A stretch of 64,000 nucleotides of DNA from Camelus ferus (lineage: Eukaryota), in contig NC_045696.1 in assembly GCF_009834535.1 (NCBI RefSeq), positions 57,910,001-57,974,000 on the forward strand, written 5' to 3'. Positions 5,339 to 13,549 of this stretch are shown one piece after another. The notes beneath the pieces are model-generated. The model saw only the letters and a program-made list of their open reading frames with translations, did not search any database and was not told the origin of the DNA. A program made the translations under genes and the position numbers. How positions within the stretch are numbered: the first letter of the stretch is position 1; each line of letters opens with the position of its first letter.

Positions 5339-6373
5339 CTGTGAAAGAATTATTCATTAATGACAGATCACAGAGTTTAATTTTCTCATAATTCTCTCAA
5401 AAAAGATGCCAACATATAATAACTCTTTACAAAATTACATAATAGTTAAACAACATATTATACATGGACATTGCATATTAACAATCTAAATTCATTCATC
5501 AGGGAGTCAAGTGAAATAATTGCGGGACTGGTGGAAGACCAATCAAAAATATTATAAAGTAAACGTGAACACTCATGGCAGTAAGCTTATTAAAGGGACC
5601 TACCAGTTTTCACACATAAATATTTTATCTTAGGGGATCCCACCCCCAAGTAGCTAGCAATCCATACAGCCCTTAGAACAGAGCAGAAATTCAAATGGCT
5701 TACTCAGCTAATTAAAAATGTATTTTAAACTTGCTTACAAAAGAAAACATTGAACAAAGAATTTAAGAGCAATCAAAATGCAGAAAACTTTATTAAACTT
5801 TTGCAGTCAATGGATATATTAATTATCTTCATTATAATGACGGTCTCATGGGTATATACACACGTCAAAACTCATCAAATTGCACACATTAAATATATGC
5901 AGTTCACTGTAGCTTGATTATACCTCAATAAATCTGTAGAAGAAAATCATACACATTTAGCAGTGATTTATATTTACAAATCTGATAAAGTTTACAGTAA
6001 TTTAAAAACTCACATTTTCTATGTCCTTTTCTGCACGAAAGTGGCATAGACTTGCCACTTCAAAACTAGAGATAACTATAAGAAAAACCTCAGTAATTGC
6101 TTACATAGTCTAAAAAGTATGTATGTGTGTGTGAATATATACATACATATGGCTTAAAGAATTTCATGGTTGGAAGGGAAAATGGTTTTGTTTCTAGGAG
6201 AAATTCTGCCTACATTCACTATGAAACTTTCCATCTGGGTAAGATGAGATTTCTAGAATACTCCCTATTATGAACCATGGATATCATATCCAAATGGTAA
6301 AACTAAGACCCTGAATGCAAGACCGAAGGAAAAAGTATTTCCTTTGACATGCTTCTCTTGTTTCATTTTTTAC

Positions 6374-6505
6374 CTGCTCCTGCACATCTTCAAACTCTGA
6401 GCTGAGCAACTCTATGAAGATAGGCACAGCTCCTGCCTGAATCACAATCCGGGTCTGAAGAGAATTTCCTGAAGCAATATTTGTCAGTACCCAAGCTGAT
6501 TCAAA
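6374..6505 (-). CDS. KPNA1: KPNA1 exon 6 ([44 protein letters not shown])
   Basis: 132 nt, AG/GT bounded, WxxxN NLS-binding motif. Confidence 0.97.
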
Positions 6506-9500
6506 CTATAAAGATAAAAATAATTTCATTATCTTGTATTTAATATAGCTTATATCTTATAAGTATATCTTATAATTTAATATAGAATTTAATAGCTTGT
6601 TTACTTATTAACAAAAAGGTTTTCTGTGCATGAGGAAAAGAATCTGAGATCATTATTTGCATAATCTATCAGGTAAATACTATGTTAATTTTAAAATAAT
6701 AATTCCTGAAGAAATACCTTAGCCTAGAGAAATATTCAGGGTATCTAAAACATCAGATCAAGACAGAGTTAACATGAGACGATCAGAATAGGGGAGTGCT
6801 TCATATACTGAATGGAATGGTCTCCCAATATATGAATGGAGGGGAAAAAAAGGAGAACACTGTACATTAATATGATCCCATACTACACTTTCTAAAAGGG
6901 TTAAGAAGGAATAGATGTATTAATTTACTTATTGCACAGACTATCTCTTGAAGGAGTCACAATAAACTGTAAATACTTGTTACTTACATAGAGAGGTCAG
7001 GGTGAATGGGAAGCAAGTATGAGAAGGAAAGACATTTATCACAGTAAAGTCTTTATGGATCTTTTGGCCTTAAACCATGCATTTATCTAATAAAAATAAA
7101 ATTAAATAATTTCTACAGGATGGGAAAAGTGAAGTCGGGAAAGAATGTTAGTGTAAAATGAGTAAAATATACGCAGAGTGAAAAAGGCAAAAGACAATTT
7201 AAATAAGTAGGTCAAAAAGAGTTAACAGGCACACAGTTAATAAAAATTGCAACTTCAGAGGAGAAGAGCTTATAATAAATGAGAAGACTCTAAACCAAGG
7301 CACAGAGGTAAGACTCTTTTAAAAAGAGCATTCTTAAAGGATGATAAACTGGAAAGCAGAAGGTATGAAGGATATTGTGGCCAACAAAAAATATATCACA
7401 TTACTAATTCTACAGATTTCTGTAGTAATTTGACTCTTTAGCCTAATATGGAGAAACCCAAGAATGAACCCTTAAAGCCCAAGAATAAACTCATATTTCT
7501 ATTCAGAGTTCTTAATTAAATTTTAGTTTTGTTTCCTCCTTCTGTTCTGTCTTCAGTTCAGTGATATGCTCCTTGAATAAGAAATCAATTAAAAGTCATC
7601 AAAAGATGGAGCCAGGACTCTTTTTAAGCTTCTGGGTCAACTGAAAGCCAGCTGTCATATGGAGAAATGAAGCATCAATCACTGGGGGCAGGGGAAGATG
7701 GAAGAAATGGGGAGACAATTAGAGCACAGTCCAAAGCTACATGAATGATAGCAAATTCATAGCAGAAGACCCTTTAAAGGGGATATTCAAAGAAACCTAT
7801 AAATGTGATATACAGAAATGAGATCTGAGATACAGTGATTTGATAGCCAATTAGGGCCCTGATATTACAGCAGTAGGGAGGCCCAGACTAGGAGCACCAC
7901 AATAAAAGGGAGTATTTTCTGTCTGATAACTTAGAAGTTTGGAGATTTTTAAAACACTGAGTATCGCAGAATAAAAACTCATCACATATCTCCTCTATAA
8001 TGATTCATACCAATGTTCAAAACCTTTTCAATCTGTCTGAATTTAAACTTTCCATTTATACACTACTCTGTATTTTCAAAGCACTGCTCACACACTTTCA
8101 GTGTTCCTTACAACAACCCAGAGAAGCCTGGCTTTTCTAGTTTACGAATGAGGAAACTATCAGAAAAAGATATGAGTAATGAATGTTACATAGTCAGTCA
8201 AAGAGAACTGGATTACAGCCTCCTCATCTAGTAGGTTTATGAGCCCAGTCATAGTTTCCACTCTGAAATATACCTGTAACACTGACAAGAATCTTGACTG
8301 CTTGTAGTTTTGGTATCAAGGACAAGAAATTTCAAATAATGATATGCCAGATTATTTAATGAATGCTAAAAGGAAAACACTGTTCACCTAAAATGCAGTT
8401 TCTTTTGCTTACTAGGAAAATTAACTAGTAAAAGGGATATATGACATGAATACGAAAGCAAACTTTCCTACAAGAAGGCAGGCTCAAAGTTCGACAGTCA
8501 AAAAATGCAAACTTTGAGGAAAAGCAACCTGTAGAGAATGAGCAGACAGACATACCAATCTTATCAAAGAGAAAATAGTTTGCAGTGAGATTTTGATGCA
8601 AAAGAAATGGTAACAATAACCTGAGTAAAAAAAGGATATATTAAAGAGCTCTCAATGAAAAGAAATTAAAATAGTAATTGCTGCCAGAATTCAAACTGCT
8701 GCTTATCTGAAGAGATTCAGCACCAAAGGTCTCCCAGGAAGTGAGAGGGAATTCCAGATGATGCTGAAGTGAATAAAATGGAGAAGCAAAACAATATAGA
8801 GTGACAATGATTAAGAAAATGGAGAATAAGTAAATAAAAGCCTGAACATGAATGGAAGAAAATGGAAATTAGGCCATCTCAGCAAAAAAAGAATGTACCA
8901 GAGTTGTGTTTATTACTAAGAAGTACAAACCGACTATAACCTCTGTGAAGAAAATTCTATGTCTCTCTTGCTAAGAATAGAAATCAGAAAATAGTTTCAT
9001 CATTATTGGGGACAGAATTAGATGAATAACTAAAACCAGAGGGCCACTGAAAACTCAAATTATATTCAAGAATTAATAAGGCAGTAAAACACACACACAG
9101 GGTGCTGATTATTTTGATGTTTACCTTGTAAAAACTCATTAAGCTATATTTGTGCAATTTTCTTTACCCGTGTGTGTATATGTGATATACATGTATGTAT
9201 GAGAAAGAAGAGGGATAGAGAAGAGAAAATTCCCCATGAGTACAGGCTCCTGTTAAAGTGTTGGAATAGCAACTTTCAAATGTGTTTAATATGTAAGTAT
9301 GTTTTTTTAAAAACCAGTTGTACTTTGAACTATGTAGCTTCTCTTTCACTGGGTATTGCAGTCATTATTTTTTGAGCAGGAGGAATGTTTCAGCCTTGGG
9401 TCCCAAACTAGAATTTATCATGAAAGAGTTGGAAAATGGGAATGCATAGAGTTGGTTGATACCAAAAACAACTGCATACAGTTATAACAGAAATGGCCAA

Positions 9501-9614
9501 AAAAAAGTAATCTAAGTAAGTCAGCATGCAACTCAAGAAAAACTCAGCAGCATGATGAAATGAAAAATATCTAAAAATGGTTATCACCTGAAGTAATAGC
9601 CAAAATAACTACAA

Positions 9615-12150
9615 TGTTTACCTCCTCTTTGTTATTCCAAACTACTATATTCCAAGAATGGGATCATGCAGCTGTGATTGCTTATAAATTATAATTCCAC
9701 TATTATATTTCACTGTCCAGAACCTGCTAAAATAAGGCTACAACTGAAATCTAAAGGATACACTGAAGATTTGGTATGTTCTCTCTTTCCTTTTCTCAGT
9801 CTCTACCTTCTGGTGCTCAGTTCCTTAAGTAAGGAAAATGAGAATCCAAAGCTGAAGTACTTCTGACCTCCTATCAAGTTTCCCACTCCAGGTTGAGGTA
9901 CGCCTGGTTCCCTTTCTCCATTTGGATCAGGACTCTGTTGCTGGCCACTTTGCCGGTTCCACTCTGGTTCCTAGCAAATGCCAGGCTCACCTGGAGAGCA
10001 AGTGAAAAGAGAGGCTCACATCAGAAAAATAAACCCAGATATCGAACTCTGCAGAGAACAGTGCCTGAGTCATCTAAGCAACCTTTCAAGATAGGTAGAG
10101 GGATCAATGAGGATGGGAAAAGATGTAGAAGGATGAAGGCTTACTGCAGTTCATCACATTTAGCTTTCAGAGGGGACCAGAAAGGTAGAAATGGGAAAAC
10201 TAAATCAATTTAATTCAAATTTACAACTTTAAGAGAAGTATCTGTTTAATGACTGGAACTAGGAGTTACTGACTTACTTCTAGCTATTTTTTATAAGTTT
10301 CTATAGGAAGGTTTGGGAATGCAACATCTCAGCATTGCTAAGGACTATACACAGATGCTGGACCTGGACTCCAAAAACCAATCAAAGTGAGCCCAGGGAA
10401 TATATCATAAGGCAGATCAATCTCATGTTAAGGACTCAAGGATGTCTGTGGCCTGTATGTCACTGAAATTAAGAATGCTCTTAGTTAAACAGCATTGTTT
10501 GCTTCCAAAATCCTAGATTCCACCCATATTCATCTCATCTGAGGGCAAGTGAGTATCTAGGTAGCACTGCCCAAAGCAGGCATATTTTTATCTCCCTAGT
10601 TTGAAGTACCCCACTGATTTGGGGATAAGGAAAGCCAAAAAGGGAGTGATGAGACTTTTCATTAGGATTCACAGTTCTTTATCTATGGAATGAAGGGGTT
10701 AAGTTTGTTCAAGGACTTATCAGTGAGTAACTAATATGACCATATATCATTATTCTCTTTCTAGAAGAGAAATGGAAAATGTCCCATTTCAAAGACGTAC
10801 TATTCAGATTTCTAATAAGCAGGGAGAAGTATCAGGGACAACTTACATCCTAGAGCTCTCCAGGAAGACAGAGGAAGGAGTAACCTCCAAGCTTCCAGAG
10901 CATGTCTAATTATTTGAGCATGAAGCCTCCTGGCTCTAAGGTATCCATCAATATACTTGCTCCTCCTGCTTCTGGGGTGGTGAAGGTTACCCAATAGTCA
11001 CACTGGAGAAAGAACATCATGTTGTTCTTAAATGTACACAGAAGAAAAGCTGAGGATGATGACCTTTAGATAATAAACAGGTTGGTTATCTCTCAGGCTT
11101 TTGATAGCTAAAGTGAAAATCTTGAGGTGATCACTTCCAGAGGAATCATTTCTCAATCTTTGAGTCTAATTACAAGGGTGGAATCTGAGAATTTAGATAG
11201 AAGCAAATTAGAGATTTCTGAAGGTTTTCATCTTCAGATGTGTTAAGATACACACTTCAGAATTACAGAATCAAAAATGATGTAGACTTCACATATGTTA
11301 GCCAGGAGAGGACACTGTCTGAGAGAATATATCATGCTCTTTACAGAGACTGGAGAAAGCAGGGATGGGAAAAGACCTGTTTCTCTGACATTTTTCATTT
11401 CAGGACTAGTTATACCATCTTCCTTTAATGCATTAAGGAACTGGACCTCTGCAACCACCTACTAAAAACTGCTAGATCCAGGAGCAAATTTAGTGTCTCC
11501 AAACCACTCTTACTATCGTAGAGAGGATAGAAACATTTTCACATGAACAAAATGATAATTTTCCCTACCTCCCTTTTTCTTCCTACAAAGCTTTTCAAAA
11601 GATAAACTGCAGTAAGGCTCTTCATTTATTCCCTCTGGTTCTCTTGACAGGTTGCTTAGGGGCTCAGGCTCTGTTCTCTGCAGTGTTGGTTGTCTGGATT
11701 TCCTTTTTTCTGAGAAAAGTCCTCTTTCTTTGATCTCTAGATGAACCTGATTATTTTCCAGGTGGCTGGTGATCCTGGCCTTAGATGGGGACCAGAATTA
11801 CAATCCAGAAAGCAGCTAGCAAAACAGAATCTTAATTCAAATGAACTCGGGGATTAGTAAATGTCAAACTGGAGAAGAAAAATTGATGGGACACTGAAGT
11901 ACTCTACCTTTTCTGGATTTCTTGTTTTTCCTCTGGAAGGAACTCATCACCGCAACAAAGAGAGTAAAAGAAGGAGAAAGATGGGATGGGAGGAAAGGAG
12001 AGAAAATATCAAGACAAAGCATCAAGTCTTACGAATTATCGTTAATGCTCTGGACAGAAAGGAACCTGGGGAAAAGGACTGTCACTTACAAAAATGCCCC
12101 AGTGCTTACAGCCTTACAGCAAAGGCAAAATAAACAAGGGGGTGAAAGTT
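9615..12150. repeat. Long diverged inverted repeat (near-palindrome) in KPNA1 intron 5
   Basis: Collinear reverse-complement anchors with coordinate sums of about 21.7-21.8 kb, e.g. 10049-10091 vs 11642-11683, 10140-10151 vs 11605-11616, 10515-10525 vs 11176-11186. Confidence 0.85.
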
Positions 12151-13056
12151 TAACTTTATGATTAACTTGTTATTAGTAAATATTTACTTGGAAAAATAAC
12201 CCCATTTTGTGATCTACCGGGCATGTAGTCAATCTTTAGAGTTGCAGAATCTCTCTAAAGGGCCTGAGCCATTCAGATTAGATCCTGCAAGTGAGAATTT
12301 AGGTATCACAGGTATTTGTTAAAAAATAACACAGAAACTGATTCAGTTGGTTACTTCAAGGAAGTTGAGCTACTAAAAAATTACATTTATTCAAAATCCA
12401 ATTTTATTGAGGAAAAATATAGTATTCTAAAATTTCTAAATAACTCCCAGGATGAGAGTCAGTTAACAGTTGTTTCTTTTTACTGTAAAAATTACCTAAT
12501 CCAGAAGTTGTAGAATTTCCTCTTGGAACCCCTATATAATACAGTATTGATAGGCTAAATTAACATAACAGAAAACACACAGATTCCTTACAAGGCTATC
12601 TCCTTGTCAGCAACTTTGGGGTCAAGCAAGAGGGAGGATTAATTAGGACCAGGTTTGGGAATCAGTGAGTCTCTGATCTAGCCCACGTAACACAGACCTA
12701 AGAAGGCCAACAAGTATAATCTAAAAATCCTTCAAAACCAAATTTTGCATGGCCCACACTTACATCCTTATAATGGCTCCTCTACTACAAACAATCCCCT
12801 ATTAGGTAAGTATGATCCACAATCATTATAAAATAATCTTTCACATGACTAAAAATGACAAGAATTTTAAAGAGTAAAACCAAGGGCCTGGATGTTAACA
12901 AAGCTATCAGAGCAATCTGCAATGTAGTTGTGGGGAACATCAGTATCAAAAAATTAATCCCTCATCTAGATTAAAATAAGTTACAAATCTGTATACAAAA
13001 TGTAAATTTACAATGCAAATTTAAGATATGAGGCAAGAAATGAAAAAGGTCCGCAC

Positions 13057-13151
13057 CTGCAGCGTACAATTCTCTTTTCGTTTGAGGAACTCCACAAACC
13101 TGGCCACTACTCCTGGTGTGCTGATGACTTCATCAATAGGAGGATTAGGTT
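13057..13151 (-). CDS. KPNA1: KPNA1 exon 5 ([32 protein letters not shown])
   Basis: 95 nt ARM-repeat peptide visible in ORF 13021..13269. Donor CAG|GTGCGG. Confidence 0.97.
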
Positions 13152-13549
13152 CTGTCTCCCCATAAAATAAAAGGAAAGAAGAGAAACAATCCTTTGATTT
13201 CAAGGCAAGGACTTTATAGCTCAAACTTACTTCATAATATCCCTCCCTCCATTTTAGCATCTCTTTCATGTTGGAAATCTAAAAAAGAAAAAAAAATGTA
13301 AAATTGAGTTCCATCACTTTGAGACTAGGGTAGTTTAAAAGGTTTCACAATCAGATAAGCCTTAACGAGGAAATAATGGGCAGAATTCTTAAAAATTAAA
13401 AGTACTGCCTCTACTATTTTAGAAAACTTAGAAGGCAGAGGAAAAAACATCAAAAGACAACCACTATTATTATTTTAGTATACTTCCTTCTAATCCTTTT
13501 CCTATGTATGAGTTTTAAGTCTCTCTTTAACATAAATTGTCTTAAGAAA

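Follow-up and report, generated by a model that had tools for sequence, protein, structure and literature searches.

A conserved NMD poison exon of KPNA1 that probably descends from a captured and duplicated cerebellin-1 fragment

KPNA1 intron 5 and its cassette exon

KPNA1 lies on the minus strand of the window, that is, the whole 64,000-nucleotide stretch of camel DNA analysed here, in which its coding exons 2–10 map between 23.1 kb and 2.3 kb. Between exon 5 (13151–13057) and exon 6 (6505–6374) is intron 5, of 6.5 kb, and within it the locus of a poison exon. Its features, in the order in which KPNA1 is transcribed except where they overlap, are these (the two copies mentioned, A and B, are described in the next section):

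13057–13151, minus strand: KPNA1 exon 5, 95 nt, phase 0, ending CTGCAG and giving the CAG of the regenerated donor
9991–10014, minus strand: pyrimidine tract and 3' splice site, predicted to be paired with 11721–11740
9868–9990, minus strand: poison cassette exon, 123 nt, beginning GTGAGC; CAG|GTGAGC is regenerated once it is joined to exon 5
9871–9876, minus strand: TGA TAG, the TGA being the TTG ATG of CBLN1 out of frame after a 1-nt deletion common to both copies
9860–9870, minus strand: exon donor GAG|GTCAGA, from point changes within what appears to be old CBLN1 coding sequence; copy B is without it, and its U1 pairing is weak
6374–6505, minus strand: KPNA1 exon 6, 132 nt, after which exons 7–10 follow inside the window

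The first-pass annotation of this DNA had described an acceptor, CCTCTCTTTTCACTTGCTCTCCAG|GTGAGC at 9991/9990 on the minus strand, a donor GAG|GTCAGA at 9868/9867 on the same strand closing a 123-nt exon, and, in frame with the phase-0 exon 5, 38 residues followed by TGA (first base 9876) and TAG. Both sites are present in the sequence and the reading was reproduced. The site at 9990 which joins exon 5 is the sole YAG|GTRAG preceded by at least 15 pyrimidines in 18 on both strands of the 64 kb, and in block shuffles of intron 5 such a site arose in 13 of 2000. The 123-nt exon has the canonical splice sites and the in-frame stop of an NMD poison exon. This stop is 6 nt from the exon end with exons 6–10 downstream, and since exons 7–10 come after exon 6 in the window the exon junctions are far downstream of it, past the distance of more than 50 nt expected for NMD.

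Two gene products differ at the upstream border of the exon. The sequence GTGAGCCT is present twice, 30 nt apart, at 10020–9991, and product P0021 splices the first copy directly to the exon start; the gap is too short for an intron and this junction is probably a gene-calling artefact. In the mouse-type product P0020 the poison exon is preceded by 18 residues which have no clear match in KPNA1 intron 5 and which may mark another upstream exon.

With the open frame of the exon as query four proteins were retrieved among seven candidates, the first of which is a 182-residue KPNA1 product composed of exons 2–5 and then the exon peptide. Its cluster numbers 18, and the members listed come from human, apes, colobus, lemur, mouse, ground squirrel, horse, deer, two bats, cats and panda, plus one contig; 14 of the 15 members listed are 182 residues long. 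Overall, a 182-residue KPNA1 isoform with this peptide as its C-terminal end is recorded for about 15 placental mammals in addition to human and mouse, and in short assembled contigs, the annotated accessions being F2Z3G4 and G3UZK5 (the latter from mouse). An orthologous short isoform in human or mouse annotation, which the first-pass annotation had named as a check, is therefore found in both. Three of the records for the isoform have longest contigs of 953, 1275 and 1337 nt, which leave no room for the 13 kb that it spans in the genome, and so these records presumably derive from spliced RNA. Many of the species records may be projections of human or mouse annotation, so that they show conservation rather than independent splicing.

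Published work is cited here by PMC number. In a supplement of PMC11188260 a 123-nt Kpna1 cassette is classed as NMD-stimulating in mouse neural cells. With cycloheximide its inclusion rose from 4.7 to 25.6% on day 3, from 4.4 to 24.4% on day 6 and from 2.6 to 15.3% on day 12, and the Kpna1 gene level went up by 0.21–0.41 log2 units (PMC11188260). The window exon appears to be a row of this table, which in the file has only three rows for Kpna1, the match being by gene, length, type and the mouse isoform G3UZK5 and not by sequence. A poison exon coupled to NMD is in this way borne out by independent isoform records and by the mouse NMD-block table, both from other species, and we regard the 123-nt exon as almost certainly a real NMD exon of KPNA1. 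It is already known to annotators; the new parts are its origin and its duplex. In 20 of the 21 sequencing runs listed for camel, half or more of the words sampled from 9780–10120 are present, which is uninformative on splicing; the repeated share of those words is 0.61, which fixed differences fit equally well.

Two inverted copies related to cerebellin-1

That 9982–10014 is complementary to 11721–11749, as had been observed in the first pass, is correct, but these stretches belong to a much larger inverted repeat. Its arms measure about 460–480 nt each, and the entire exon with its donor falls inside it:

9757–10220, minus strand: arm A, a putatively CBLN1-derived piece in KPNA1 sense, containing acceptor, exon and donor
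9828–9990, minus strand: part of copy A that is homologous to the last coding exon of CBLN1, extending about 40 nt beyond the new donor
10221–11540, no strand: spacer of about 1.3 kb with marginal inverted similarity (score 322 against 254 ± 28, top of 100 shuffles 347)
11541–12023, no strand: arm B, the inverted second copy, also putatively CBLN1-derived, transcribed first in the KPNA1 pre-mRNA, where it is the antisense of arm A; its sequence is under constraint in pig, bat, Apodemus and further contigs
11561–11571, minus strand: conserved donor GAG|GTAGGG (11569/11568) where arm B ends towards the spacer; gene models of pig, bat and Apodemus splice from it
11741–11938, plus strand: copy B of the CBLN1 last exon, decayed, with several frameshifts; the AG is kept at 11739–11740

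Over aligned bases the arms are about 72–80% identical. A short and marginal inverted match, between 10495–10525 and 11176–11206, lies almost on their axis and suggests that the duplication once extended further inwards.

The exon peptide matches Cerebellin-1 (E 4e-6), and a genome search with it gave as its sole other match the last exon of CBLN1, on contig C9 (the window is on C1). Both arms match this exon as DNA (E 2e-19 and 1e-16). Their scores against CBLN1 were 351 and 325, versus 298/229/190 and 262/225/146, respectively, against its three paralogues. In translation copy A retains CBLN1-specific residues around IQMEKG. When alignments were anchored at the acceptor, just 2 of 433 acceptor-like sites outscored the 100–180 nt upstream of copy A in similarity to the CBLN1 intron, and the match of the copy B flank was beaten by 7–12 of the 433. 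The cerebellin paralogues gave no such signal in anchored comparison of introns, and the last 45 nt of the anchored upstream flank alone were not significant against the CBLN1 intron. Unanchored alignments of the flanks to CBLN1 were weak, the upstream scores being reached in 8 and 31 of 300 shuffles, and the downstream flanks had no unanchored match to CBLN1. As judged by these comparisons, descent of the copies from the CBLN1 family is virtually certain, and CBLN1 itself is very probably the source.

Copies A and B have flanks in common (z 14.7 and 4.5) and share the 1-nt deletion which exposes the TGA latent in TTG ATG, hence one already broken copy was duplicated. In a tree built from six short sequences, A and B form a group at 77%, and neither is placed with CBLN1 (56% for another grouping). 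The changes common to A and B comprise 13 synonymous and 6 replacement, versus 13 synonymous and 34 replacement among those private to A or B, which are even over the codon positions (P 0.005 against the shared set). Since the shared changes are mostly synonymous and the private ones are not, they indicate that the parent was under selection, that each copy afterwards decayed neutrally and that a freeze followed. The head-to-head geometry suggests fold-back duplication.

Matches to CBLN1 exons 1 and 2 in the window and the intron were at background level only, and the spacer (10221–11540) holds no remnant of either. Given this absence and an upstream sequence resembling the last intron of CBLN1, the captured piece was presumably unspliced; a processed pseudogene of CBLN1 is ruled out, as there are no joined exons and the upstream sequence is intron-like. 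The ends of the piece, where a poly(A) tail and a target-site duplication would lie, are heavily decayed. One might also regard the copies as relics of a once-functional pair of CBLN1-like genes nested in the intron, and the mostly synonymous shared changes, the common flanks which unanchored barely match CBLN1, and a tree that leaves the parent of A and B unplaced would all agree with this. We think it improbable, however: neither exon 1 nor exon 2 has left any remnant in the window or the intron, the anchored intron similarity is specific to CBLN1, the frameshift common to both copies means that the sequence was broken before it was duplicated, and selection on CBLN1 itself also predicts the synonymous excess.

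Origin of the exon from a transposon was also rejected, the genome searches having found this locus only and no dispersed family, although their sensitivity is limited and old copies could escape. The same searches failed to recover CBLN1 at the DNA level or copy B at the protein level, which bounds their sensitivity for further copies; within that limit none was found in the genome. GC-rich matches of the CBLN1 locus to 42.5–43.4 kb were read as CpG-island composition.

All four of the cerebellin last exons begin AG|GT, that of CBLN1 being CAG|GTAAGC. At the true CBLN1 last exon (L007 4666/4667, minus strand) this constitutes a near-perfect donor-like sequence at an acceptor. Copy A is without 27–28 nt near the exon start and the alignments disagree on where this gap belongs: some of them, and the register of the fold, make the present AG|GT coincide with the old acceptor, and others locate it within old coding sequence with the GTGAGCCT repeat at 10020 as the old start. 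It is likely that the present AG|GT is the inherited CBLN1 acceptor; the exon's donor is new under either placement.

Once the exon is joined to exon 5, the regenerated CAG|GTGAGC has a U1 pairing of −11.1 kcal/mol versus −5.5 for the exon's own donor and is thus the stronger of the two, as in recursive-splicing exons, where the exon start likewise regenerates a strong donor after upstream joining (PMC6224609). In that study the downstream donor loses out when the regenerated donor is strong, and the exon junction complex represses the regenerated one. From the motif, recursive splicing at 9990 is plausible. Whether the site has been kept mainly as a recursive-splicing exon, inclusion and decay following when the junction complex blocks the regenerated donor, is more doubtful. 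The difference in U1 pairing and the precedent of PMC6224609 argue for such a role, which would be compatible with the CBLN1-derived poison exon that we prefer; against it, the intron is just 6.5 kb, the AG|GT motif may be simple inheritance from CBLN1, and arm B is left unexplained. The published recursive exon of the same gene is the constitutive exon 11 (PMC4268817); the reporter sequence there is another exon, whereas the window exon is a low-inclusion, stop-bearing cassette.

Constraint on the arms and their predicted pairing

The 38-residue peptide of the window differs at 0–3 positions from 17 of 18 proteins compared; a narwhal model has 5 differences, 4 of them where the model leaves the exon. 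The human peptide is identical to that of the window and the mouse peptide has 1 difference. Neutral simulation, with substitution only and assumed distances of 0.15–0.6, matched the observed conservation of the exon peptide in 0 of 5000 runs. Gene models translating arm B have 70 of 73 codons identical in pig, and in the core of the arm, which was picked after viewing, 29 of 36 in Apodemus; conservation as high as that of arm B in pig or Apodemus came up in no more than 2 of 5000 neutral runs, and the arm is less conserved than the exon. Both complementary regions are then conserved, as in structure-controlled poison exons, the evidence here being translated proxies. All named species with records for the exon or arm B are boreoeutherian. 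Of the three hits among 1.84 billion representatives, one was a cerebellin model from sturgeon and the other two were short products of mammal type. The exon had no counterpart from marsupials, birds or reptiles in this search, which is weak evidence of its absence there. These comparisons show that both of the putatively CBLN1-derived copies came under constraint in placental mammals.

It might be suggested that what is selected is the 182-residue protein, which would combine the importin-beta-binding domain, part of the first armadillo repeat and a cerebellin-like tail, and act as a competitor for importin beta. Its peptide is highly conserved and the frame is open up to the stop, but 9 of the 38 columns of the tail are variable, whereas the genuine KPNA1 portion has 10 variable columns in 144 (P 0.006), and as the tail varies more, with non-conservative changes, the constraint would be on nucleotides. 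Furthermore its mRNA is decayed, and the tail is less than half a C1q domain and frameshifted. We therefore hold this to be very unlikely, and the truncated protein, which the first-pass annotation had offered as one outcome of inclusion, is not a likely point of the exon. The predicted fold of the isoform (mean pLDDT 47) is uninformative.

In the minimum-energy fold one continuous duplex of about 460 bp spans acceptor, exon and donor and pairs 78% of the exon bases, at −360 kcal/mol versus −163 ± 9 in 30 shuffles and −238 with the arms folded apart. The duplex of the opposite strands is equally stable (−377). There is no excess of G.U on the transcribed strand (20 G.U versus 24 A.C, similar under 4 of 4 scorings), and as most mismatches predate the freeze this null result is weak. 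The presence of arm B lowers the predicted unpairing of the tract from 0.43 to 0.29 and of the AG from 0.17 to 0.13, and raises that of the donor, which becomes more open. Seven of the 9 inferred exon changes fit the pairing, which at a realistic transition bias is not significant (P 0.11–0.22). A search of 6300–13300 with Rfam gave 0 matches at E 0.1. The first-pass proposal that a hairpin masks the site gains from the constraint on both arms but not from the predicted accessibility, which barely shifts, nor from G.U pairs, which are not in excess; going by the modelled fold, we lean slightly towards a role for the pairing in setting exon inclusion.

The arms might instead be constrained separately, arm A for the poison exon and arm B for an exon or start of its own or a DNA element, with the pairing a leftover of the duplication. 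The null G.U test and the equal stability of both strands are in keeping with this, as are the small change in predicted accessibility, the lower conservation of arm B than of the exon, and the presence in arm B of its own conserved donor (pig, bat and Apodemus models) and of an acceptor for a 300-nt, early-stop exon. On the other hand the part of arm B facing the tract and the upstream intron is conserved, the inverted similarity is clear over the outer arms only and fades in the spacer, the mismatches come mostly from the neutral phase so that a null G.U result is expected either way, and a duplex of 460 bp would be hard to avoid with both arms transcribed. Separate constraint consequently seems to us rather unlikely, and a duplex that damps inclusion is the reading we retain. 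On the minus strand, the acceptor of arm B and its conserved donor would yield the 300-nt exon at 11868–11569, with a stop after four codons; pig and Apodemus models splice this donor to the poison exon and a bat model also uses it. The 300-nt exon is possibly a second unproductive exon or belongs to an internal transcript.

Converted by an approximate assembly offset, a mouse Kpna1 editing site would presumably fall about 1.7 kb upstream of the exon, at arm B. Among the rows listed in the supplement of PMC6724681 is one non-repeat mouse Kpna1 editing site, with 0–2 edited reads per sample and unmodulated in Adar knockout marrow. Control by editing, another first-pass idea, can point to this single low-count site, but not to any modulation in the knockout. 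Two supplement files of PMC4053846 contain no KPNA1 editing entry, and among the rows listed in 11 of the 14 files of PMC7462079 there is no Kpna1 splicing row. ADAR2 binds KPNA1 for its nuclear import (PMC2761270), which makes a feedback loop worth a test and does not show one. In its fullest form, such a loop would have begun with one fold-back capture of CBLN1 giving acceptor, recursive donor, latent stop and antisense cover; ADAR2 would read the duplex, set inclusion and hence the level of its own importer, and the loop would have been frozen in the placental ancestor. We consider this quite unlikely.

Proposed history and related systems

It is well supported that the exon, its AG|GT motif and the hairpin all descend from a duplicated CBLN1 fragment, an origin which the first-pass annotation missed. 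The conserved NMD poison exon of KPNA1 probably arose, we suggest, from a captured and duplicated piece of CBLN1, with a duplex damping its inclusion. An unspliced piece, comprising the end of the last intron, the last coding exon and a little 3' sequence, would have entered KPNA1 intron 5 and been duplicated head to head; the homology is shown by the sequences, and the order of these events is what we infer from them. Both copies would then have decayed neutrally, as shown by their codon pattern. The sense copy would have kept the AG|GT acceptor typical of cerebellin last exons and gained a donor and an out-of-frame stop, becoming a 123-nt cassette whose inclusion, according to the published table, would send about 15–25% of mouse neural Kpna1 transcripts to decay. 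Later both copies would have been held under constraint in placental mammals. The antisense arm B, transcribed 1.7 kb earlier, may pair with the emerging acceptor, exon and donor and so damp inclusion, and an exon already joined could be removed again via the strong regenerated donor unless the junction complex blocks it.

A literature search pairing KPNA1 with poison exon found nothing, and neither the CBLN1 origin nor the duplex of the KPNA1 exon was found, though subscription journals, genome-browser tracks and further supplements could hold them; term look-ups in PMC10573301, PMC11632617 and PMC2718932 gave no mention of either. Descent from a duplicated cerebellin fragment thus seems unreported.

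The exon shares with the poison exons of alternative splicing coupled to NMD (PMC11188260, PMC11632617) the stop-bearing cassette, the rise of inclusion under NMD block and the strong conservation. Unlike them its host gene encodes a transport factor and not an RNA-binding protein, and its origin is traceable to the coding exon of another gene. The structure-controlled poison exons of BRD2 and BRD3 (PMC10789245) and conserved complementary regions (PMC10573301) likewise place long-range intronic pairing beside a conserved poison exon. In BRD2 and BRD3 the introns on either side of the exon hold the pairs, which loop it out and have been tested (PMC10789245), whereas in KPNA1 the pairing is predicted from sequence and the exon is not looped out, a 460-nt antisense copy that arose by inverted duplication pairing with the exon itself and both splice sites.

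Pseudogenic exons (PMC2718932) are also disabled copies with frameshift and stop and a neutral codon pattern, sometimes inverted or alternatively spliced, and the KPNA1 copy too is disabled by frameshift and stop and has a neutral codon pattern. Their parent is in the same gene, however, and NMD is mostly avoided, whereas the KPNA1 copy has its parent on another chromosome (C9 versus C1), elicits NMD and is strongly conserved. A further parallel, in which foreign sequence was likewise fixed as a conserved alternative exon, is the LF-SINE exon of PCBP2, a transposon-derived ultraconserved exon; the source of the KPNA1 exon, unlike it, is a fragment of a single-copy host gene belonging to no repeat family.

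The sources of conserved poison exons and of long intronic RNA pairings are mostly unknown because they have decayed. In KPNA1 the sequence still tells from which gene the exon came, that the copies passed through neutral decay and that they were frozen afterwards, and one duplication would explain both exon and structure. With about one fifth of Kpna1 transcripts decaying in mouse neural cells, blocking the exon or arm B should shift KPNA1 up or down. The level of KPNA1 reportedly affects anxiety in mice.

Two other unproductive exons have been listed for this gene. One is a 64-nt human cryptic poison exon, '2b' (PMC11632617). The other, from mouse Kpna1, is an NMD cassette of 42 nt that precedes the 123-nt cassette by about 2 kb (PMC11188260) and would fall near the outer end of arm B.
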